Origin: Escherichia virus TH54
Sequence record: MT446420.1
Length of the DNA: 64,000 nt
Direction: 5' to 3' (one strand)
The notes beneath the pieces were generated by a model. It saw nothing but the letters and a program-made list of their open reading frames with translations. It was not told where the DNA came from and did no database searches. Both the position numbers and the translations under genes were made by a program. The number at the start of each line of letters is the position of its first letter. Position 1 is the stretch's first letter. Of the stretch, positions 5,606-20,998 are shown in pieces.

Positions 5606-6178
5606 TCAGCTTGTCAATTCGAGCCAATGTTTCCTGCATAAAGATACGTACGATTCATTCCCACCGACCAATACTTGCTCGCCGTCCTTTACAGCAGCAC
5701 CGTCGATTACTCGAGCGGTCATGGTTGCTTTCCGGCCGCAATGGCAGACGCCCTTTAATTCAACCAGTTTATCCGAAATAGCCAGAAGTCTGGCTGAACC
5801 GGGAAATAACTGACCCCGAAAATCTGTTCTTAGCCCGTAACACATAACGGGGATATTGTAATTATCAACCACTCGTGCTAACTGGTCAATTTGCTCTGGC
5901 AACAAAAATTGAGCTTCATCGACCAGGACACAATGGATGTCCTTTTGAGACTCGGCCCATTTATAGAATTCAAACAGGTTCATGTCGGCCGTTACCAGGT
6001 TTGCTTCCTGGCTAATACCAATACGTGATTTAATTTCAGATTCCGAGTCCCGATTATCAATAACAGGCTTTAGCAAAAGCACACTCATTCCACGCTCTTT
6101 ATAGGAATAAGCGGCAGTCAGCAATGAAGCTGTTTTGCCTGCATTCATTGCTGCGTAATGATAAATTAAACTCGCCAT
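5606..6178 (-). CDS. tk: thymidine kinase
   Basis: 190 aa; P-loop AAMNAGKTASLL, VDEAQF and CHCGRKA zinc motif; near-colinear with T4 Tk. Confidence 0.9.
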   Translation of the reverse strand: MASLIYHYAAMNAGKTASLLTAAYSYKERGMSVLLLKPVIDNRDSESEIKSRIGISQEANLVTADMNLFEFYKWAESQKDIHCVLVDEAQFLLPEQIDQLARVVDNYNIPVMCYGLRTDFRGQLFPGSARLLAISDKLVELKGVCHCGRKATMTARVIDGAAVKDGEQVLVGGNESYVSLCRKHWLELTS

Positions 6179-10250: not shown

Positions 10251-10550
10251 TTAAAAAGAACCAGAGCCTTTAATTGTGTTCTGGCGACCTTTATTTTCTA
10301 ATTCAGAATGGTCGATTTCGTATGCTTGTGCTACACCAAAGGCCTTTTTAACTTTAGCTAAAGAACCTTTAGATGTAACAATATTAAAAGTATTACCTTT
10401 AGTAAAATCAACCAAATCCACTTGTACACCCTGTTTACCGAGGCTTGCTACAATAGCATCAACATATTGTTGGTCTAAATTACCCTGAACCCCAATTTGA
10501 AATGCTTTAGGAGCTTTGACTTCAGTAATAAATTCTTGATAAGTTTTCAT
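10251..10550 (-). CDS. internal-protein-like, N-terminal capsid targeting sequence
   Basis: 99 aa starting MKTYQEFITE, matching the conserved CTS of T4 IPI/IPII/IPIII. Confidence 0.6.
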   Translation of the reverse strand: MKTYQEFITEVKAPKAFQIGVQGNLDQQYVDAIVASLGKQGVQVDLVDFTKGNTFNIVTSKGSLAKVKKAFGVAQAYEIDHSELENKGRQNTIKGSGSF

Positions 10551-10552
10551 TT

Positions 10553-10605
10553 ATTCGCTCCAAGTTGATAGGATAATTATACACTATCCCATCATAAAGT
10601 AAACA
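10553..10605 (-). promoter_or_regulatory. early promoter GTTTAC-N17-TATAAT with -10 inside inverted repeat
   Basis: minus strand GTTTACtttatgatgggatagtgTATAAT; GATGGGATA / TATCCTATC arms flank the -10. Confidence 0.6.
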
Positions 10606-10606
10606 G

Positions 10607-10870
10607 TTATGCTTTACCGCCAGAAACAATACCAAAGGTCTCAAAGTCCCATTCAATATCGTCAACATCAACTTTCTTACCAGCAACCACGAATGCGATT
10701 TCGCGACGTTTTGCATAGGTGACAATTTCTTTACCATCACCACCAAAGAAAGAATAACCATTGCGCTTCATGGTGCCAAAGTCTTCAGCATCACCGGCGA
10801 AGGCGCGGACTTTAAAAGCACCGGTAGGAGCTTTAGCAGATTCAGTAATAAATTCTTGATAAGTTTTCAT
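10607..10870 (-). CDS. internal-protein-like, CTS-bearing
   Basis: 87 aa starting MKTYQEFITE. Confidence 0.6.
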   Translation of the reverse strand: MKTYQEFITESAKAPTGAFKVRAFAGDAEDFGTMKRNGYSFFGGDGKEIVTYAKRREIAFVVAGKKVDVDDIEWDFETFGIVSGGKA

Positions 10871-10883
10871 AATGTCTCTTTAA

Positions 10884-11198
10884 TTACTCTTTAGGGAAAT
10901 CACGCAAAAATGCATCATAAAGTTTATTACCAATGCGACGGAATGCTTTTGCCGCATGAACGTTATCCGGATTTGCAATTTTAATCTGCATTACATGACT
11001 ACCAGCCCATGATTTGGCTTCATCATAATAGCCTTTAATTTCTTTAATAGTCTTACGTTTTCCACCAGGGCCATCAACAGTAATTTTCCACGAACCCGTG
11101 CTCGTTTCACTTGGTGGGGTTAATTGTTCAATCCAGACATAACCACCTTCAACACGTTTTTGGGTAGATTCAGTAATAAATTCTTGATAAGTTTTCAT
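10884..11198 (-). CDS. internal-protein-like, CTS-bearing
   Basis: 105 aa from internal Met MKTYQEFITESTQKR; promoter and SD precede this Met. Confidence 0.55.
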   Translation of the reverse strand: MKTYQEFITESTQKRVEGGYVWIEQLTPPSETSTGSWKITVDGPGGKRKTIKEIKGYYDEAKSWAGSHVMQIKIANPDNVHAAKAFRRIGNKLYDAFLRDFPKE

Positions 11199-11200
11199 TT

Positions 11201-11258
11201 TATATTCCATTGTTTGGTTGATAAAATCATTATACAACCTTTTTAGTTAAGCGTACAC
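11201..11258 (-). promoter_or_regulatory. early promoter (-35 GTGTAC, -10 TATAAT)
   Basis: minus strand TGTACG-N17-TATAAT upstream of ATG 11198. Confidence 0.5.
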
Positions 11259-12234: not shown

Positions 12235-12693
12235 TTATCCGAAAATTTGAGTCATTACCTTGTACATCGATTTACCCATCACATACTGCCATTGACTCGG
12301 TTTAATCAAAGCAAATGCATCGAACTCTGGGACTGTACTACCATCCGGGAAGGTATGATAGGCAGAGCATTTACTATGTCTGAACTGCTCATGCTCGACC
12401 GGAACCGTGTACAGAAACAGGTGAAGATTTTTGTTATCTGAATAGCGGAATTCACCCAGGTCCTTTAAGAATGCTGGGTCATATTGGGTAAACCCGGTTT
12501 CTTCTTCGGTTTCACGGATAGCAGCTTCAATCGGGGATTCATCAGCTTCAACATGACCCTTAGGGATGTCCCATTTGTGTGCAGGCATACCTGGTTTACG
12601 AGAACCGGTCACACGACCCATGAATAACTCTTTATCTTCAGTCATGAAAATAATGCCAGCAGATAATTCTTTCACCTTGTTTTTCTTACTCAT
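12235..12693 (-). CDS. nudE: Nudix hydrolase
   Basis: Nudix box GHVEADESPIEAAIRETEEETG; start MSKKNKV overlaps upstream stop. Confidence 0.8.
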   Translation of the reverse strand: MSKKNKVKELSAGIIFMTEDKELFMGRVTGSRKPGMPAHKWDIPKGHVEADESPIEAAIRETEEETGFTQYDPAFLKDLGEFRYSDNKNLHLFLYTVPVEHEQFRHSKCSAYHTFPDGSTVPEFDAFALIKPSQWQYVMGKSMYKVMTQIFG

Positions 12694-12922
12694 CGTCACG
12701 TTCCCAGGATTGGTTAAAAATATCACTCATTAAAAATTCAAGTCTATTTTCCAATGAAGGGGATTCACTATCAGAAATTTGAATTCTGTATTCAGAAATA
12801 GGGCGGAACATATCCAAGTCAGTTTCTAAATCATCTTTGATTTTCTCTTCTGATGTACCTGTATCATAGGAATACAGATAAGAATCACACGACTCAGATT
12901 TAATATAAATTGCAATACTCAT
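12686..12922 (-). CDS. hypothetical acidic protein
   Basis: 78-aa ORF, coupled to nudE. Confidence 0.4.
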   Translation of the reverse strand: MSIAIYIKSESCDSYLYSYDTGTSEEKIKDDLETDLDMFRPISEYRIQISDSESPSLENRLEFLMSDIFNQSWERDDE

Positions 12923-13506
12923 TTACGGCATTCCTCAATAAAAGAGTTCAATGTATTTTTCTTGGCGATATCGTCGTATACCTTTTTAACTTTAGAAATA
13001 CGAAAAGGTACTTCAATAACCATAGTCCATAAAAGTGATGCAATAAGTCCAACAGCAGCAGAAGAAATGCACGCGCCCATTACAGCTACAGGTGCTTCAT
13101 TTTTACCTGTCAGGAAAAACCACAGGATTGGTAAAAATAAGATTCCAGCCCATGCATAAAACCTGGAACAAATTAACTTATCAAATTCATCTTTCCAGGT
13201 ACGAAATCCATATTTCTTGCTATAAGAAATTAATGGGTCTGGTGTCTGTTCTTTGAGTGGTTCTGGTTGATGCCCATTAATGATGTATCCCATTTTATAT
13301 TCCTTAATTAAAAGCTCTTTCATATGACGATTGCATCGCGACCAATCAACATTTTCAACCTTGATTCCTTCATCACCATCATCAAGGTTCGCCCAATATT
13401 TTTTGGCAATCATAAATTCGTCTCTTGATACAATTATACCTGTATTTTCTGGGCGACGGATGAAGTTTACATCAACACCCATACACCCAGGTTCATAAAG
13501 GGCCAT
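12919..13506 (-). CDS. membrane protein, 2 TM helices
   Basis: 195 aa; hydrophobic segments AWAGILFLPILWFFL and VMGACISSAAVGLIASLLW; C-terminal FIEECRK shared with paralogs. Confidence 0.45.
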   Translation of the reverse strand: MALYEPGCMGVDVNFIRRPENTGIIVSRDEFMIAKKYWANLDDGDEGIKVENVDWSRCNRHMKELLIKEYKMGYIINGHQPEPLKEQTPDPLISYSKKYGFRTWKDEFDKLICSRFYAWAGILFLPILWFFLTGKNEAPVAVMGACISSAAVGLIASLLWTMVIEVPFRISKVKKVYDDIAKKNTLNSFIEECRK

Positions 13507-14195
13507 TACCAGCCCTCCATGGGGAATTCCAGATATACTTGAGCATTAACGCGGATTTCATTGGTAACTTTATTAACACGGTCAGTTTTACGAGATACGC
13601 GACCAAACCAGCGCCAACCGTTACTAACTGTTTTTGTTCCAGTATGCCAGGTCTGCCAGTTGAATTCACATAATGTGCGGTCAGGAGCTTCTTGAACTAA
13701 AAGTTCACCCGCCTTGATTTTTTCCAGAACTTCCTGGTGCCACTGGCGATAGATAAGTTCGCCATCAGGAATCTGACTGAATTCTGCAGTTCCAAGAGCA
13801 AAATTAGTAGGGCAAACAGAAGCGTTAACCAGACCCAGGATGTGTTCAGAATGGTAACGAGGGTTATCATAATCAGGTTGTCCTGCTGTAATAAAATGTT
13901 GTCCTGCTGGAATATCTGGTCGCGGTACGTCATCATGGTGATATCCAGGGATAGCAGGATACCAACCAGGCATTAACATGTGTACACGGGAATCAAATAC
14001 AATATCAGGGCCACATTGCCAATCTTCAGGCAGGTTTTCAATAAAGCTACGAGTAATAGGACCGCCATGCTTATGCGCAAATTCTGGATAGCAGTTAAAG
14101 AACATGGGCTCATTTTTAATCATATCATTACTGATATCTTGAGCAAATTGACCAACTTCACGCATTTGACTATTAAAAGTTTTTGGACTGTTCAT
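13506..14195 (-). CDS. hypothetical protein with His/Asp-rich motifs
   Basis: 229 aa; GYHHDDVP and RYHSEH motifs; preceded by promoter/stem-loop. Confidence 0.45.
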   Translation of the reverse strand: MNSPKTFNSQMREVGQFAQDISNDMIKNEPMFFNCYPEFAHKHGGPITRSFIENLPEDWQCGPDIVFDSRVHMLMPGWYPAIPGYHHDDVPRPDIPAGQHFITAGQPDYDNPRYHSEHILGLVNASVCPTNFALGTAEFSQIPDGELIYRQWHQEVLEKIKAGELLVQEAPDRTLCEFNWQTWHTGTKTVSNGWRWFGRVSRKTDRVNKVTNEIRVNAQVYLEFPMEGW

Positions 14196-14197
14196 AA

Positions 14198-14252
14198 TAT
14201 TTTCCTCATTGATTGTGGGACCATTGTGTCATGGTCCCACTTGGATGTACAC
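14198..14252 (-). promoter_or_regulatory. putative early promoter with 10-bp inverted repeat GTGGGACCAT
   Basis: minus strand GTGTACA upstream; perfect inverted repeat GTGGGACCATgacacaATGGTCCCAC. Confidence 0.4.
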
Positions 14253-14254
14253 AA

Positions 14255-15214
14255 TTATTTTTCGAAAGGACGAATTAAATGTTGGTTAGCCTTAAAGCGT
14301 TTAACATAGTCTTCATGACCCAGTGTGTTATACATATTAACCACGTCCTGATAATGTTCCCAGGCATACTCACGGAACCATCCAGAAGTAATGGAGGTGC
14401 AGACTTTTTCCAGCGCAATATGGAAGCTCATGGATGGAGAGATATTGAACTCATTAGGAACCTGCGAACGTTCCAGAGCGAGCACACATGCTTCTTCATA
14501 AACCCCTGCCAGTTTAATAACATCAGGCAGTGCTTCAAATTTTTCACGTGAGGTCATGACTTCTGAATCATCCTTCATATAGAACTTATATGCAGGCTTA
14601 TCAGCAAGCGCCACAGCCTCGTGGATGGAGTCATGGTCAAGGGTATAGATTGTATCATTAAAGAAAGTTTTCTTGCCCACATCTAGTTTAGGGTGACTGT
14701 ATGACAGTGTTTCTGCCTGACGCTGCAGCATGATTTTCTGCAGTTCATCATTAAGAACAACACCCTTATTGCGAAGATAATTAATATGACTCATGGTCTT
14801 CAGGAAGAATGGGTTGTTCTTCAGGTAACGATGAGACAATTTAATCGCCAGACAAATATCAGGAGTCGCCCAATAGAAACCTGTAAGACGGTCTTTCTTA
14901 ATATGATTTTCAGCGTATTTCAAGAGACGATAACTTGAGGTGAAATCTTCGTCTTGAAGCTCACCAGTAATTTCTCGTACGTTAGTCAGGGCACGGACAA
15001 TATAAGCTTCAAAATAGGTTTCTTTGCCATTGTACATACATTTAAAAGCTTGGACATCAGGGTTATCCACAGGAACATGAGCACCGAACATACGTGCTTT
15101 AAAGTGGTTCCAAGAACCCTGGTCAGCGATAAAGTCCCAATCAGAGTTTTCAATTTTCTGACTTTCAATCAGACCAGCGTTATGTAATGCACGAGAACCA
15201 ATAACTAACATCAT
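14255..15214 (-). CDS. hypothetical protein
   Basis: 319 aa from MMLVIGSRALHNAG; GS...SDWDF spacing loosely nucleotidyltransferase-like; GAGGAAA SD. Confidence 0.45.
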   Translation of the reverse strand: MMLVIGSRALHNAGLIESQKIENSDWDFIADQGSWNHFKARMFGAHVPVDNPDVQAFKCMYNGKETYFEAYIVRALTNVREITGELQDEDFTSSYRLLKYAENHIKKDRLTGFYWATPDICLAIKLSHRYLKNNPFFLKTMSHINYLRNKGVVLNDELQKIMLQRQAETLSYSHPKLDVGKKTFFNDTIYTLDHDSIHEAVALADKPAYKFYMKDDSEVMTSREKFEALPDVIKLAGVYEEACVLALERSQVPNEFNISPSMSFHIALEKVCTSITSGWFREYAWEHYQDVVNMYNTLGHEDYVKRFKANQHLIRPFEK

Positions 15215-15233
15215 AATATTTTCCTCAGTAAAC

Positions 15234-15473
15234 TTAAATTTCAGCAACGTAATCGTTATGCAATTCCCACATATCATCAGAATTATTCTTAATGATAGGA
15301 ATTATCTCATTAGAGATTTCTTCTGCATAAGGGTCATTGATACAGTGAGCATCTTCAAAACGAACACCATAATCAGACTTCTTATAAGAGAAGCCATAAA
15401 TCTTTTTAAACTTGGCACGAGTAATGCGTACCGGTTCATTAGACTTATCGGACATCGGAGCGTAATACCACAT
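15234..15473 (-). CDS. hypothetical small protein
   Basis: 79-aa ORF. Confidence 0.4.
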   Translation of the reverse strand: MWYYAPMSDKSNEPVRITRAKFKKIYGFSYKKSDYGVRFEDAHCINDPYAEEISNEIIPIIKNNSDDMWELHNDYVAEI

Positions 15474-15585
15474 ATATTCTCCTCATATTGTGTAAAGTAA
15501 TAGTATCGCAGTTTTTTGGAGTTGTATACTGCTTCTGCAATATTCTAAAAATAATTTATCCTCCTATCACATCCTTGTGATAATT

Positions 15586-15819
15586 TTAGCAGCTACTCGG
15601 ATACCAGATTTTACCATCGGCACGAGCAACGAAGGTACGACCAGCTTCTTCACCATAACAAGAGCTGTTCAACCAGTCTTCAAGACGGACTTCGCCGTCA
15701 TAATCATCAAGCTCAACACCAAAATCTTGAGCAGAAGCCATATCTTTTACTTTCTTATACAGTGCAGCCAGTTCAAGGGCAGCTTTTTCTAATTCAGCAT
15801 GTTCAACAGCAGTAGTCAT
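15586..15819 (-). CDS. small protein of C-terminal W-x-SS-C family
   Basis: 77 aa from MTTAVEHAELEK, ends WYPSSC; SD lies in upstream gene's last codons. Confidence 0.45.
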   Translation of the reverse strand: MTTAVEHAELEKAALELAALYKKVKDMASAQDFGVELDDYDGEVRLEDWLNSSCYGEEAGRTFVARADGKIWYPSSC

Positions 15820-15829
15820 TTTTATTTCC

Positions 15830-16057
15830 TTAGCAAGACATAGAGGAGTTAAACCAGAAACCTTTACCATCTGGGATACCATAATCACCGCGAATCCAGT
15901 CATACTCTTCGTATTCTGGACAACCCGCAGGAATATATCGTTGAAGACTGTCAGCATACACATGAAAGTATTCACCAGTTTTATCGGCCAGTTGTTCACC
16001 TTCACAGATTAGTGCACGGATTTGGTCTTCAATTTCTTTAACAGTTTTAGCAGTCAT
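15830..16057 (-). CDS. small protein of C-terminal W-x-SS-C family
   Basis: 75 aa, ends FWFNSSMSC. Confidence 0.45.
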   Translation of the reverse strand: MTAKTVKEIEDQIRALICEGEQLADKTGEYFHVYADSLQRYIPAGCPEYEEYDWIRGDYGIPDGKGFWFNSSMSC

Positions 16058-16066
16058 TTTATTTCC

Positions 16067-16264
16067 TTAGCATTCGTAAGAGGAGGACACCCAGGAGCCA
16101 CCCGTAATTGTAATACAGCCATTGTAAATCGTGATATGACGGTCCAGATGGTTTTCACCTTCGATATAGATGTCGGCTTCTTCACGTTCTTCTTTACAAA
16201 TCTGGATAACGTTTTCAATAGCTGCCGCGGCAGTACGGATTGCACAATCTAATTCACGAGACAT
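16067..16264 (-). CDS. small protein of C-terminal W-x-SS-C family
   Basis: 65 aa, ends GGSWVSSSYEC. Confidence 0.45.
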   Translation of the reverse strand: MSRELDCAIRTAAAAIENVIQICKEEREEADIYIEGENHLDRHITIYNGCITITGGSWVSSSYEC

Positions 16265-16273
16265 AATAATTCC

Positions 16274-16555
16274 TTAACATTCAACAGAAGAGGACACCCA
16301 ACCACCATTTTCCAGGTCAGTTGTATAGTCATGAGTATTAACAATAGCCCATTCAGGATGACCATGTTCTTCCCAATGAGCAAGGTCGGCTTTCAAGGCG
16401 CCAGGAGAATAATAGTCACCGCCCATACCGCGAGCAGGGTATATATTAAAATGAGTCTCATATTTGTCTGCAATTTCCTCGGCACGACGAATAGCTTTAT
16501 GGATATCATTTACTGCGGCCAGAAGCTCTGGTTGGTTATGGTTATCATTCATCAT
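16274..16555 (-). CDS. small protein of C-terminal W-x-SS-C family
   Basis: 93 aa from MMNDNHNQ, ends NGGWVSSSVEC. Confidence 0.45.
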   Translation of the reverse strand: MMNDNHNQPELLAAVNDIHKAIRRAEEIADKYETHFNIYPARGMGGDYYSPGALKADLAHWEEHGHPEWAIVNTHDYTTDLENGGWVSSSVEC

Positions 16556-16556
16556 A

Positions 16557-16847
16557 TTAGCACACCTCAGAAGAGGAAACCCAGGCACCAACAGTAACAA
16601 TGCCGTTTTCAACTTGCCCGCCGTTGTTTTCAATATGGTGGGCGAACCATTCGGAACATTCATAACCGACTGGGTGATATGTACGGCCGGTGCCGTAATC
16701 GCCAGTGCTGAATTCGATACCATATTCATCTGCGATTTCTTCACAGTGTTTTTCAATTTCAGAGGTCTTATTTAGAAGAGAATAGATAGCTTTTTCTGCA
16801 GATTTCTCATCATAATACTTGGGGATAGCAATTTCAATTTTATTCAT
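16557..16847 (-). CDS. small protein of C-terminal W-x-SS-C family
   Basis: 96 aa, ends GAWVSSSEVC. Confidence 0.45.
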   Translation of the reverse strand: MNKIEIAIPKYYDEKSAEKAIYSLLNKTSEIEKHCEEIADEYGIEFSTGDYGTGRTYHPVGYECSEWFAHHIENNGGQVENGIVTVGAWVSSSEVC

Positions 16848-17197
16848 GATTTACATTCCTTAATAAAGGTTTCAAGGTCATTACGTTTTGTTTTGTCTAG
16901 AAACTTATTATACTCAGCCATTGCCGAAGCATATCTCTTACGACTAGGAGCATTCACGGCGTTTGTGTGACAAATATCATACACAACCGGGATAAAATAA
17001 GCCACAATAGCCGGAGCGATTATCATAAAGAAACCCATCTCAATAGGCATGACTCCCTCGATTGCAGCCATAACCGTGGTCATTACCAGACCAACCAAAC
17101 CACCAAGCATGGCGGTGACAATCCCTAATAATAAATTGCCACCAATATCATATTCAGCCAATTGATAAACATGTGAGGCAAGACTAGGCCGTTCCAT
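16844..17197 (-). CDS. membrane protein, 2 TM helices
   Basis: 117 aa from MERPSLAS; AAGGAGG SD; C-terminus TFIKECKS. Confidence 0.45.
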   Translation of the reverse strand: MERPSLASHVYQLAEYDIGGNLLLGIVTAMLGGLVGLVMTTVMAAIEGVMPIEMGFFMIIAPAIVAYFIPVVYDICHTNAVNAPSRKRYASAMAEYNKFLDKTKRNDLETFIKECKS

Positions 17198-17543
17198 TAC
17201 GAACCTCCTTAATAAATTCTTCGGCACATTTAATTTTGTGCTCTTCTTGTAGGGAAACACATTTTTGTTCCCACGCTTTAACTCGCCCGCGATAACCTTT
17301 ATTCATATGATTTTGATGCCACACGTTTATCAATAACATGCTCAGGACTGTAATAAAAGGTGCTGCAATTACTAGCGTCCAGGCGACTCCAACACTAATG
17401 ATATTCATATCTCCACAAAGCACCATCATTATAACCCCAACGATGCACATGGACAGAGCTCCAAATGGAGGCATAAGGTCTTTATCAATCTTGTCTGCGT
17501 ATACAAATTTTTCTGGTTTACTTGGCAGATATAACGTTCGCAT
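17184..17543 (-). CDS. membrane protein, 2 TM helices
   Basis: 119 aa from MRTLYLPSKPEK; AAGAGG SD; C-terminus EEFIKEVRNGTA. Confidence 0.45.
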   Translation of the reverse strand: MRTLYLPSKPEKFVYADKIDKDLMPPFGALSMCIVGVIMMVLCGDMNIISVGVAWTLVIAAPFITVLSMLLINVWHQNHMNKGYRGRVKAWEQKCVSLQEEHKIKCAEEFIKEVRNGTA

Positions 17544-18075
17544 TTTGAACCTCTTTAGCATATTCACGACATTCAGCAATAAAACGATTAAGCTTACGTT
17601 TCCGTTTACGACATTCTAATGTGTACTCAGCCGCCAAATCAAAAAGCTCATCTTTATCATAATTTTTAATATCAGTATAAGTTGGGCGGCGGTCAACCAT
17701 TCCAAAGTGGTCACCATTTTCCAACATCAAATAACACACCAAATGGTCATCATCGTCCGCATTAATAAGCTGCTTATAATCACTTGGTTCATTTAACGCA
17801 TACACAGAATAACTCAGTCCAGCGAATTCCACTCGTTGAATACCCAGATTTACATCAATAATTTCCAAGGCATCTGCGAAAGAAAGGTCTTCAGCTAAAG
17901 CAAAAATAAAAGGCAATTTGGTAGTATCACCGCGACTTGTTGTTCTTCTTAAGAAATCATTGGAATAGCCCAGGTCACCACGGATTCTATAAAGAACTGT
18001 ATTAGTTTCAGTGGCAAGACCGCTACCACCAAACCAGTCTACATTTGATATAAGGTCAGTGTATAAGCTCATAAT
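17518..18075 (-). CDS. hypothetical protein
   Basis: 185 aa from MSLYTDLISN; GGAGG SD. Confidence 0.45.
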   Translation of the reverse strand: MMSLYTDLISNVDWFGGSGLATETNTVLYRIRGDLGYSNDFLRRTTSRGDTTKLPFIFALAEDLSFADALEIIDVNLGIQRVEFAGLSYSVYALNEPSDYKQLINADDDDHLVCYLMLENGDHFGMVDRRPTYTDIKNYDKDELFDLAAEYTLECRKRKRKLNRFIAECREYAKEVQNANVISAK

Positions 18076-18087
18076 TTTCTCCTCTCC

Positions 18088-18107
18088 CAATTAGGGGGCA
18101 AAGCCCC
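18088..18107 (-). other. intercistronic GC hairpin GGGGGCaaaGCCCCC abutting the downstream SD
   Basis: perfect 6-bp GC stem between stop of 18117-18710 and GGAGAGGAG SD. Confidence 0.4.
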
Positions 18108-18116
18108 CATTTTATC

Positions 18117-18710
18117 TTACTTAAGCGAATTGATATATTCTTCAATGTCAGCGGATGTGGTATCCACACCAACCTGTGGGCCTTTGAAGGTTTCAACACG
18201 CATCAGAGTGTCTTCAATATCAATCTTAGTCAATGCAGCGATTTCAACAACATCATCTGCAGTCGCAATACCTAGGGCAGATACTTTACGGGTTTCGCGG
18301 ATGTATTCCAGTTTAACAGCTAGTTCCTGACGAGAGTCATCTAGCTCTTTAACTTTCAATTTAATTTCATTACGCATTTCAACATAATCATCTGCCTTCT
18401 TACGAAGTTGTTTAGCAGTGCGACGATACAGGAGACCCAGTTTAGCATGGACCTGGACATCTGCACCATCAGCAATCAGTTTGCGGATTTCACGCTCTTT
18501 TGAAGCGGCGAGTTGGTCTTTTTCATTCGCTAACTCGCGGATGCGTTTTTCTTCATTAACAGACTTAACGTGGGCAGTCTGGAGCTCAGTAATCTTGTCA
18601 ATCAGGGTAGAAGCCGCTTGAGTATATTGGTCTTCAATAGACAGGTTTTTTGCCATTGCAGTACCCAGTTTGGAGCGGATGAATTCAACAAGTTTCTTTA
18701 AAGTATTCAT
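18117..18710 (-). CDS. coiled-coil protein
   Basis: 197 aa, highly charged heptad-like sequence; weak resemblance to PspA/IM30-type coiled coils. Confidence 0.45.
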
Positions 18711-19606: not shown

Positions 19607-20038
19607 TTAAATTTCAAATTCTTTGCGGAAGTTGGAAGCATAAGACTGAACTGATGCTTTGTTGAATCCAAACTCACGCACAATCATATCAATAACAGCT
19701 CTACGAGCAGCACCATTAGACATATTGACAGTTTTGAACATATCATAGCATAAATCTTTGTTGCTCATGCCGGAGCGTTTAGGTGCCTTACGTTCAGCTT
19801 TAGGAGTAGGTTTAACTTCTGGTTTAACCTGTCCATCATTCAGACCTTTAAAAATTTTACCTGCCAGCGTTGCCAGTTTAGCAGCTTCGCCACGAGTGAT
19901 ACCAAATACTGCCGGGTTAAATGAAATACCTTCAGCTGTCAGACGTTTGAAGAACATACGTGCTGCGGATTGTGCTTCAGCTTCAGAAGAGTTGTTTAAT
20001 GCCAGTTTAATGTACTTAACCAGTTTTGAAGTTTTCAT
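19607..20038 (-). CDS. hypothetical protein, paralog of 20491-20916
   Basis: 143 aa; C-terminus ...ARRAVIDMIVREFGFNKASVQSYASNFRKEFEI matches paralog. Confidence 0.5.
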   Translation of the reverse strand: MKTSKLVKYIKLALNNSSEAEAQSAARMFFKRLTAEGISFNPAVFGITRGEAAKLATLAGKIFKGLNDGQVKPEVKPTPKAERKAPKRSGMSNKDLCYDMFKTVNMSNGAARRAVIDMIVREFGFNKASVQSYASNFRKEFEI

Positions 20039-20490: not shown

Positions 20491-20916
20491 TTATTTTTGA
20501 GCTTTGCGGAAGTTGGAAGCATAAGACTGAACAACAGTCTTTTTGATATCATGGGTGGTAACCAGAACATCAATCAGAGCGCGTCGAGCTGCATTATCAT
20601 TCATATCAATTTCTGCAAATGCCTGGAAGCAAATGTCACGGGCGTTACCCGATTTGGACCGGATTTTTTCTTCTTTAACTTCTTCAATTGGGAATTCAAT
20701 CATTTCAGCTTGGATTAATTCAATGATAGATTCTTTTGACTGTTTGGTGTTTACCTTCAGTTCAGAATTAAGGGACTTGGCGATGGCAACAATCTGGGTT
20801 GAAGTCAGATGAATAAGTGCATCTTCACGAATGCAGATTTCACATACTTCGTCAGCAACCATTTTGTTGGTGATGCGGGTAACAGAGAATGCAGAGGTCA
20901 GGGTCAGAAAGTTCAT
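20491..20916 (-). CDS. hypothetical protein, paralog of 19607-20038
   Basis: 141 aa from MNFLTLT; shares C-terminal ..VVQSYASNFRK and a 30-bp identical DNA block. Confidence 0.5.
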   Translation of the reverse strand: MNFLTLTSAFSVTRITNKMVADEVCEICIREDALIHLTSTQIVAIAKSLNSELKVNTKQSKESIIELIQAEMIEFPIEEVKEEKIRSKSGNARDICFQAFAEIDMNDNAARRALIDVLVTTHDIKKTVVQSYASNFRKAQK

Positions 20917-20919
20917 TTT

Positions 20920-20998
20920 ATTTCTCCAAAGTTTTGTTTGATTCAGTGTGTAACTCAGTATGGAATCATTATGCACCCGGTCAATTCGGATGTACACT
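20920..20998 (-). promoter_or_regulatory. early promoter cassette (-35 GTGTAC, -10 CATAAT) with conserved leader
   Basis: GTGTACAtccgaattgaccgggtgCATAAT plus leader block. Confidence 0.55.

Follow-up and report, generated by a model that had tools for sequence, protein, structure and literature searches.

Do short peptides that recur at the ends of neighboring phage genes reflect common descent of the genes, the provision of a ribosome-binding site for the next gene, or a property of the peptide itself? This question is raised by a gene cluster in a 64,000-nucleotide stretch of DNA from Escherichia virus TH54 (sequence record MT446420.1; the whole stretch is called the window hereafter). Here, homologs of the T4 genes e.2, e.3, and e.4, together with a gene in the position of T4 e.5, end in related tails of the type FIxxCR, and the DNA encoding the tails also contains the Shine-Dalgarno sequence (SD) of the gene that follows. 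Translational coupling of overlapping genes, with ATGA junctions and the SD inside the upstream coding sequence, is common in T4 and in compact phage genomes. It is already known that the genes are T4-type open reading frames (ORFs), and their packing is ordinary; the breadth of FIxxCR, its peptide-level nature, and its coincidence with the junctions of precise gene insertion or deletion have no record in the databases and papers searched. In our view, the tails of the cluster between e.6 and nudE are likely to represent one conserved peptide motif, hydrophobic-[E/D/N]-x-[F/W]-[I/V]-x-x-C-R, overlaid by the SD of the next gene.

All genes in the part of the window from 12600 to 18200 lie on the minus strand. 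The tails read NSFIEECRK-stop in the e.2 homolog (12919..13506), ETFIKECKS-stop in the e.3 homolog (16844..17197), EEFIKEVRNGTA-stop in the e.4 homolog (17184..17543), and NRFIAECREYAKEVQNANVISAK-stop in the e.5-like gene (17518..18072). The motif itself is L-N-S-F-I-E-E-C-R-K in e.2 (12922..12951) and L-E-T-F-I-K-E-C-K-S in e.3 (16847..16876). In e.4 it is degenerate, E-E-F-I-K-E-V-R (17199..17222), with V in place of C, and in the e.5-like gene L-N-R-F-I-A-E-C-R (17566..17592) stands 15 residues before the stop codon and does not form the SD of the next gene.

At the end of e.2, the SD GAGGAA (12931-12936) lies in the E-E codons, and after a 9-nt spacer the ATG (12920-12922) overlaps the stop codon as ATGA. 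The end of e.3 is built in the same way, with the SD AAGGAA (16856-16861) in the K-E codons, a 9-nt spacer, and the ATG (16845-16847) of the gene at 16557-16847 in an ATGA overlap. In e.4, the SD AAGGAGG (17204-17210) occupies the K-E-V codons, followed by a 6-nt spacer and by the ATG of e.3 (17195-17197), which lies inside e.4 and gives an overlap of 14 nt. In the case of the e.5-like gene, the SD of e.4 (AAAGAGG, 17550-17556) lies in the A-K-E-V codons, seven codons past FIAECR, and the overlap is 26 nt. All four junctions in the window therefore have the layout expected of coupled genes, as judged from the sequence: overlap of stop and start, SD inside the upstream ORF, and spacers of 5-9 nt. 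The initial annotation had proposed that the four ORFs carry related tails and that the tail DNA supplies the next SD; the tails are as it described, and the base-by-base check agreed at all four junctions, with the refinement that the SD in the e.5-like gene is in the tail but seven codons downstream of the FIAECR motif, not within it.

An in-frame ATG upstream of the annotated start of e.4 is found at 17559-17561 (minus strand), within the E-Y-A codons of the e.5-like gene, and would give a protein beginning MLKRFKMRT. Its position matches that of the T4 e.4 start in the e.5 tail relative to the ECREY motif; the annotated start (17541-17543) has a much better SD.

The strict form of the motif, F[IV]x[ED]C[RK], was found four times in the six-frame translation of the window, compared with 0.08 expected from mononucleotide shuffles, and three of the four matches are the tails described above. 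The fourth, FIADCR (6111-6128, minus strand), was dismissed as a chance match, as it lies out of frame inside the thymidine kinase gene (tk, 5606-6178). With the relaxed form [FW][IV]xxC[RK], no further ORF of at least 40 amino acid residues in the 64-kb window carries the motif near its C-terminus, and no ORF within T4 bases 1-50000 contains it anywhere in the protein.

We then studied 43 T4-type loci, including 34 further loci fetched with e.6 as the anchor; among them are T4, RB32, PhAPEC2, JS98, VR5, QL01, SP18, KP182, Edwardsiella phage PEi20, Citrobacter phage Moon, and one Enterobacter phage. The relaxed motif occurs in the last 30 residues of 145 of their 1993 plus-strand ORFs, or three to five per genome. 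In the control, which consisted of 58 nudE-anchored loci of more distant phages, two or three of 2094 ORFs had it, and one of these carriers probably does belong to the group: it has two transmembrane (TM) helices, and its gene lies immediately before nudE. When the tails were masked, the carriers fell into 22 BLAST clusters, about 13 of small two-TM proteins and about seven of soluble ones. They span at least a dozen PHROGs, none with an assigned molecular function, and the distance from the motif to the stop codon ranges from 0 to 15 residues. In the window, in these loci, and in T4 bases 1-50000 (about one third of that genome), the motif is a mark of the accessory cluster between e.6 and nudE of T4-type enterobacterial phages.

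Orthologs keep the tail as well. Those of e.2 end in NSFIEECRK (window), NDFIEECRK (VR5), ERFITECRNLR (PhAPEC2), and NNFITECRKLK (T4), and those of e.3 in ETFIKECKS, ENFIKECRK, and KEFVIDCRKIK. The e.5-like tails are NRFIAECREYAKEV (window), NRFIKECREYAKEA (VR5), EKFVKECREYVKAI (T4), EQFIMECREYVKAN (PhAPEC2), and DEFIKYCRERVQK (KP182), and e.4 has the degenerate forms EEFIKEVR, KFVKESRC, EFVKEIRC, and EFVKEVRRK. In databases, T4 e.2, e.3, and e.4 are 'predicted membrane proteins' that are treated as separate families, whereas the present analysis ties them together by the shared tail. In the databases and the literature that we searched, neither the shared motif nor its occurrence in about 20 families is on record: the literature search for the tail peptides, and for e.2/e.3/e.4 together with segB, found no mention, and Nolan et al. 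2006 (PMC1524935) do not discuss the e.2/e.3/e.4/e.5 cluster genes.

The initial annotation suggested that the conservation of the tails may reflect both paralogy and the constraint of translational coupling, and the two kinds of constraint can be separated residue by residue. For codon counts and SD positions we used 97 distinct junction DNAs, with residues numbered relative to F as 0. The F codon was TTT in 65 junctions and TTC in 27 (TTC, 28%), and W can replace F; Ile was encoded by ATT (54), ATC (16), and ATA (11), ATC and ATA together making up 33%; Cys by TGT (52) and TGC (45); and Arg by CGT (31), AGA (23), AGG (20), CGC (9), and CGA (7). Position -3, which is outside the search pattern, was L, I, F, V, or M in 93 of the 97 junctions and in 19 of 21 cluster consensus sequences. 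Its codons vary (CTT, TTA, TTT, ATT, GTT, and others), and hydrophobic character alone is kept. Position -2 was E, N, or D in 76 of the 97 junctions.

The SD is less fixed. The best SD-like match starts at codon +2 in 30 junctions, +5 in 27, +6 or +7 in 10, and +9 to +27 in 27. The R-K codons of T4 e.2 and e.3 contain the SD, AGGAAA, whereas in the window the x-x codons of these genes do; F, I, C, and R have thus been retained through a shift of the SD. An SD-like tetramer occupies the x-x codons in 20 of 28 tails that end at most two residues past the motif, versus 8 of 69 longer tails (Fisher P = 1.5e-8). The middle pairs that bear the SD are KE, EE, or KG, and these two middle positions are the variable ones of the motif. 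AGG makes up 22% of the motif Arg codons versus 8% in the background, an approximately threefold over-representation, consistent with the role of AGG as the core of the SD at T4-type junctions.

The dual constraint is thus true for the K/E-E pair and some Arg codons and false for the motif as a whole, and this part of the proposal in the initial annotation survives only there. Independently of the SD, purifying selection acts on the peptide, keeping F, I/V, C, and R together with a hydrophobic side chain at -3. The similarity is not confined to the SD nucleotides, as the conserved residues are outside them, the codons drift, and the SD moves. The junction RNAs showed no structure beyond that of shuffled controls (z from -0.17 to +1.11), so masking of the starts by RNA structure is not indicated. 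Promoter-like matches were not in excess (12 found, 18.9 expected), and the four gene junctions had neither a promoter signal nor a terminator-like hairpin; one weak promoter-like match on the plus strand (17223-17242) lies inside e.4, shortly before the tail motif of that gene. The hairpin that scored strongest is in the 44-nt gap between e.6 and the e.5-like gene (18094-18108) and consists of a perfect 6-bp G+C stem-loop, GGGGGCAAAGCCCCC. The corresponding position in PhAPEC2 is annotated as a putative terminator, and no U-run follows the stem-loop on the coding strand.

The repeated tail and junction DNA also coincides with places where genes were lost. The Dhakaviruses JS98, VR5, and QL01 have no e.4. 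In the window, e.4 is flanked by a direct repeat with 13 of 16 positions identical, whose left copy is the junction of the e.5-like gene and e.4 (17541..17556, minus strand; AAAGAGGTTCAAAATG, containing the SD and start of e.4) and whose right copy is the junction of e.4 and e.3 (17195..17210, minus strand; AAGGAGGTTCGTAATG, containing the SD and start of e.3). The corresponding junction of the e.5-like gene and e.3 in JS98, GCTAAAGAGGTTCAAAATGGAACGGCCTAG, is an exact hybrid of the left half of AAAGAGGTTCAAAATG and the right half of AAGGAGGTTCGTAATG. As e.4 is present in Tequatro-, Mosig-, Jiaoda-, and Gapriverviruses, its loss in the Dhakavirus lineage would be the parsimonious interpretation. 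Likewise, e.2 is missing in contig L021 and in RB32, where the e.3 tail (FVIDCRK in L021, FVSDCRK in RB32) is followed by the LK-stop of e.2 and the start of nudE; the crossover is in the shared C-R-K codons (TGCAGGAAA in T4 and L021). After either loss, the upstream gene still has a full tail and the downstream gene a full ribosome-binding site, and the repeated DNA marks the crossover points of these two precise losses. A third candidate, the deletion of e.3 in contig L020, was rejected: sequence was lost from the interior of the gene, the tail DNA is still there, and no tail-to-tail crossover is involved.

Other changes in the same genes were observed. T4 e.2 (L006, 4722-5209) is split into ORFs of 102 and 63 amino acid residues, RB32 e.3 (L003, 4363-4659) is frameshifted in an A-run, and e.3 of L020 (about 10580-10700) has lost an internal segment while its tail DNA and the downstream ribosome-binding site are intact. 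Members of the cluster are thus decaying in both laboratory and wild phages, and the genes are clearly expendable.

The identities of the genes were taken from the annotations of SP18, JS98, RB32, PhAPEC2, and T4 and from PHROG scans. Megablast of positions 12600-18200 retrieved 275 phage records, the top ones being T4-like coliphages of Gaprivervirus and Dhakavirus (SP18, VR25, VR20, and others) with 86-94% identity; the phage of the window is T4-like and of the Gaprivervirus type. Its genes e.6, e.5-like, e.4, and e.3 are followed by about 3.3 kb of inserted DNA and then by e.2, a gene similar to ORF130c, nudE, and e; the homologs of T4 e.2, e.3, e.4, and e.5 (PHROGs 2203, 2330, 2604, and 2607/8788), which in T4 lie between e/nudE and the tRNA region, are in the same order as in T4. 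The e.2 homolog (195 amino acid residues) has a soluble N-terminal part, two TM helices, and a basic tail, and belongs to the T4 e.2 family (phrog_2203, E = 9.8e-67, residues 32-195 on profile positions 1-166 of 166). The gene is named e.2 in the SP18 and JS98 annotations and sits just upstream of (130c) nudE, an order kept in 30 or more loci; the start served by its tail is that of a gene for 78 residues (12686..12922, minus strand), which is RB69 ORF130c-like (phrog_2900). The e.3 homolog (117 residues, two TM helices, and a basic C-terminal helix), downstream of e.4, is a member of the T4 e.3 family (phrog_2330, E = 1.1e-45, residues 1-117 on 1-122 of 122), with 24-31% identity to Tequatrovirus and Mosigvirus e.3 over 99% of its length in tblastn. 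The e.4 homolog (119 residues, two TM helices), between e.5 and e.3, matched phrog_2604 over its full length (E = 4.7e-44) and belongs to the T4 e.4 family; its identity to e.4 of T4, T2, and RB32 is 28-33% in tblastn, and e.4 is named in the SP18 annotation.

The fourth gene encodes a soluble protein of 184 residues in the position of T4 e.5 between e.6 and e.4. It starts at ATG 18070-18072, three nucleotides inside the ORF 17518-18075 of the initial annotation, which had correctly noted the similar segment near its end and placed only the start coordinate wrongly. The protein matched phrog_8788 (1.5e-112) and, weakly, phrog_2607, the T4 e.5 family (6.7e-4 over 34 residues). With the tails masked, hhalign of its family against the e.5-like cluster scored 23.9 over 76 columns (reversed control, 13.6), and it shares with T4 and RB69-type e.5 the position after e.6 and the extended tail F-[IV]-x-E-C-R-E-Y-[AV]-K. 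These similarities suggest that it is at best a distant relative of e.5. Scans of Pfam, NCBIfam, and PDB sequences gave nothing above threshold for the four genes or for e.6. The latter gene (18117-18710) is by far the most conserved of the cluster, with 75% amino acid identity to T4 versus 21-33% for e.3 and e.4; it reads as mostly long charged helix-type sequence, for which Pfam (at the curated cut-off) and NCBIfam had no match and the PDB no significant one.

Could all the tail genes be paralogs produced by tandem duplication, with the tail kept by the double constraint of the protein end and the SD and the motif having no function of its own? We consider this unlikely, although it describes one pair well. 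The adjacent genes e.3 and e.4 have similar N-termini (M-x-K/R-P-S/K-L), two TM helices each, and similar tails; BLASTP aligned them over 84 residues, including both TM helices and the tail (E = 2e-5), and their profile-profile score after removal of the tails (29.5) exceeded the best of 66 reversed-sequence controls (24.3). They are credibly tandem paralogs. The same explanation gains from PHROG cross-matches (e.3 to phrog_2203, 6.8e-4; e.4 to phrog_2330, 4.4e-3; several distant two-TM families to phrog_2203), from the six of 66 pairs of two-TM families that scored above all reversed controls with the tails masked, and from the SD within the tail at every junction in the window. However, alignment of e.2 with e.3 or e.4 is limited to the last 9-17 residues, and its tail-masked scores against e.3 (19.6) and e.4 (13.9) are within the control range. 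Similarity of the e.5-like protein to the membrane proteins is found only in 13-14 tail residues, and the soluble families (e.5-like, phrog_20096/29231, phrog_32323, and phrog_22510) have no link to the membrane families outside the tail; nor do the small soluble families have one to e.5 or, mostly, to each other. A single superfamily is therefore not demonstrable, and the tail is the sole common element. Within the motif, moreover, conservation is lowest at the positions that encode the SD, and the SD shifts over about 25 codons. The paralogy claimed in the initial annotation is therefore supported for e.3 and e.4 and not supported for e.2 and the soluble e.5-like protein.

It is also conceivable that nucleic acid is what is selected, either as an initiation cassette (an A/U-rich UUUAUU enhancer plus the SD) or as a recombination joint, and that conservation of the peptide is a by-product. 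F-I is mostly encoded by UUU-AUU, in 92 of 95 junctions only 19-56 nt separate the motif from the start that follows, two independent precise deletions cross over inside the tail and junction repeats, and short repeated cassettes, the PeSLs (early promoter plus stem-loop), mediate modular shuffling in the hyperplastic regions of T4-type phages (Arbiol et al. 2010, PMC2839356; Comeau et al. 2014, PMC4122927). We nevertheless hold this to be improbable in view of the free codon drift at F, I, C, and R (with both CGN and AGR families used), the replacement of F by W, the merely hydrophobic conservation of position -3, the gap of 4-20 codons between motif and SD in the e.5-like proteins, and the RNA structure of the junctions, which is within shuffled controls. 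Least probable of all, in our opinion, is that the tail is a processing, targeting, or nascent-peptide signal. It would then be related to MKTYQEFI(A/T)E, the T4 capsid-targeting sequence, in which gp21 cleaves at I-x-E, or would make the ribosome pause near the stop codon and so aid re-initiation. The motif is always near a stop codon and the next start, the rare Arg codons AGG and AGA are enriched in it, and three internal-protein-like ORFs of the window carry MKTYQEFITE, which contains F-I-x-E. Most carriers, though, are integral membrane proteins, which are unlikely capsid cargo, and the variable distance to the stop codon (up to 15 residues) argues against an arrest peptide specific for that codon. 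Assignment to the T4 capsid-targeting and gp21 sites was rejected: the motif is C-terminal, whereas the targeting sequence is N-terminal; Glu, invariant at the cleavage site, occurs at +3 of the motif in only 7 of 21 cluster consensus sequences; and the invariant C-R is absent from the capsid-targeting sequence, so that the resemblance was judged coincidental. The three ORFs with MKTYQEFITE lie at 10251-11237 (minus strand), and the sequence is N-terminal in the first two and preceded by an upstream TTG extension in the third.

We therefore return to the conserved peptide motif and ask where it would be placed in the protein. The initial annotation gave two TM helices each to e.2, e.3, and e.4, and hydropathy analysis bears this out: each has two hydrophobic segments (Kyte-Doolittle 19-residue mean, 1.7-2.3), approximately at residues 116-134 and 140-164 in e.2, 22-40 and 54-72 in e.3, and 26-44 and 54-72 in e.4. 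The e.5-like protein has a hydropathy maximum of 1.27 and no hydrophobic segment, and is therefore soluble. By charge counts, the C-terminal tails of the three membrane proteins are net basic, and so are probably cytoplasmic according to the positive-inside rule. By hydropathy and charge, e.2, e.3, and e.4 thus share one architecture, in which a pair of TM helices is followed by a basic C-terminal helix with the tail motif. A low-confidence AlphaFold2 model of e.3 (pLDDT, 53.5) has helices at residues 9-46, 53-81, and 84-116, the last of which reaches the C-terminus; that of the e.5-like protein has a pLDDT of 46.6. As homolog searches with these two proteins gave only close relatives (72-95% identity), the alignments were too shallow.

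On the peptide reading, a C-terminal helix would end in the motif, which would form its final turns; in proteins with two TM helices, this helix is probably cytoplasmic. The motif would be carried by e.2, e.3, the e.5-like proteins, and many further small families, with a degenerate form in e.4. The spacing of residues -3, 0, +1, and +4 would place them on one face of an alpha-helix. Head-to-tail packing, in which the stop codon of one gene overlaps the start codon of another, makes the tail the site of the next SD as well, and in this phage the two free positions have been recruited for it (GAG-GAA, AAG-GAA, and AAG-GAG). As a side effect, the repeated tail and junction DNA provides short in-frame homologies for the precise loss or gain of whole genes. 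What the motif does is a more tentative matter. It may be a common interaction surface by which the proteins bind one partner or each other at the inner membrane, a possibility to which we give rather less than even weight; the invariant Cys-Arg and the one-sided hydrophobic pattern fit a shared contact, and such a surface could assemble the soluble e.5-like protein with the small membrane proteins. A bolder proposal, somewhat doubtful in our own estimate, is that FIxxCR is an as yet undescribed portable C-terminal 'address' helix that docks a changing repertoire of unrelated T-even-type accessory proteins, small two-TM and soluble e.5-like ones alike, to a single partner or to one another on the cytoplasmic side of the inner membrane through a contact or bridge formed by Cys-Arg, and whose coding DNA acts as an in-frame recombination joint, so that new cargo genes could be plugged in or dropped without loss of the tag or of downstream translation.

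Several points weigh against the peptide reading. The search pattern defined the motif, so the conservation of F, I, C, and R in the retrieved set is partly circular; the non-circular support is the enrichment over controls, position -3, and the conservation among orthologs found by other domains. The nearly constant placement of the motif 19-56 nt from the next start means that the translation-initiation region may contribute. The motif is not universal, as e.4 has no Cys at +4, and since e.2, e.3, and e.4 are often lost or broken, its role is dispensable. Finally, the models of e.3 and the e.5-like protein appear too poor to reveal what the motif does.

Three known systems are comparable. 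The four junctions in the window resemble other coupled overlapping genes in their predicted layout, and the SD shapes the two variable residues of the motif; unlike under a plain SD constraint on overlapping genes, the conserved residues do not encode the SD and no RNA structure masks the starts. In other systems, one hub is bound by otherwise unrelated proteins through short docking peptides at their C-termini; the C-terminal tip of SSB and the clamp-binding motifs are examples. The likeness to these is an analogy only, consisting of a short C-terminal motif on unrelated bodies that is conserved as a peptide; FIxxCR differs in its predicted helical, amphipathic character, its invariant Cys-Arg, and its restriction to one gene cluster. 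Like the PeSLs, the repeats of the window are short, lie at gene boundaries in a hyperplastic region, and match the positions at which genes were precisely gained or lost. They do not belong to the PeSLs, as no sigma-70-type early promoter with a stem-loop terminator was found at the four junctions; they are 9-16 nt of coding sequence, SD, and start codon rather than promoter-terminator modules, and when exchange occurs at the tails, the reading frame is maintained and neither the tail nor the ribosome-binding site behind it is lost.

Two further groups of genes near the cluster also have similar C-termini. Five consecutive small ORFs (15586-16847, minus strand) end in W-x-x-S-S-x(1-3)-C (GKIWYPSSC, GFWFNSSMSC, GGSWVSSSYEC, GGWVSSSVEC, and GAWVSSSEVC) and form a second tandem array with its own C-terminal signature (phrog_899; RB69 ORF136c-139c-like), which is present in most related loci between e.3 and ORF134c. 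Upstream of the cluster, the ORFs at 19607-20038 and 20491-20997 (minus strand) share the C-terminal region AARRA(V/L)ID..VQSYASNFRK and look like another pair of paralogs.

If the motif were functionless, little more than ordinary paralogy and dense packing of genes would be left of our finding. Like many other T4 genes, those between e.6 and nudE have no assigned function, and a signature linking e.2, e.3, e.5, and about 20 families is the first common handle on them; it suggests that the proteins of the cluster act together or on one target. The signature permits a mutational test, in which changes of F, I, C, and R are compared with synonymous recoding, and serves as a key in the search for further members. 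The tails are also a natural example of the constraints of a protein and of a ribosome-binding site in overlapping genes, resolved position by position, and they show that where genes have been precisely gained and lost in the variable parts of T4-type genomes, the sites can be marked by short coding repeats as well as by promoter-terminator cassettes.

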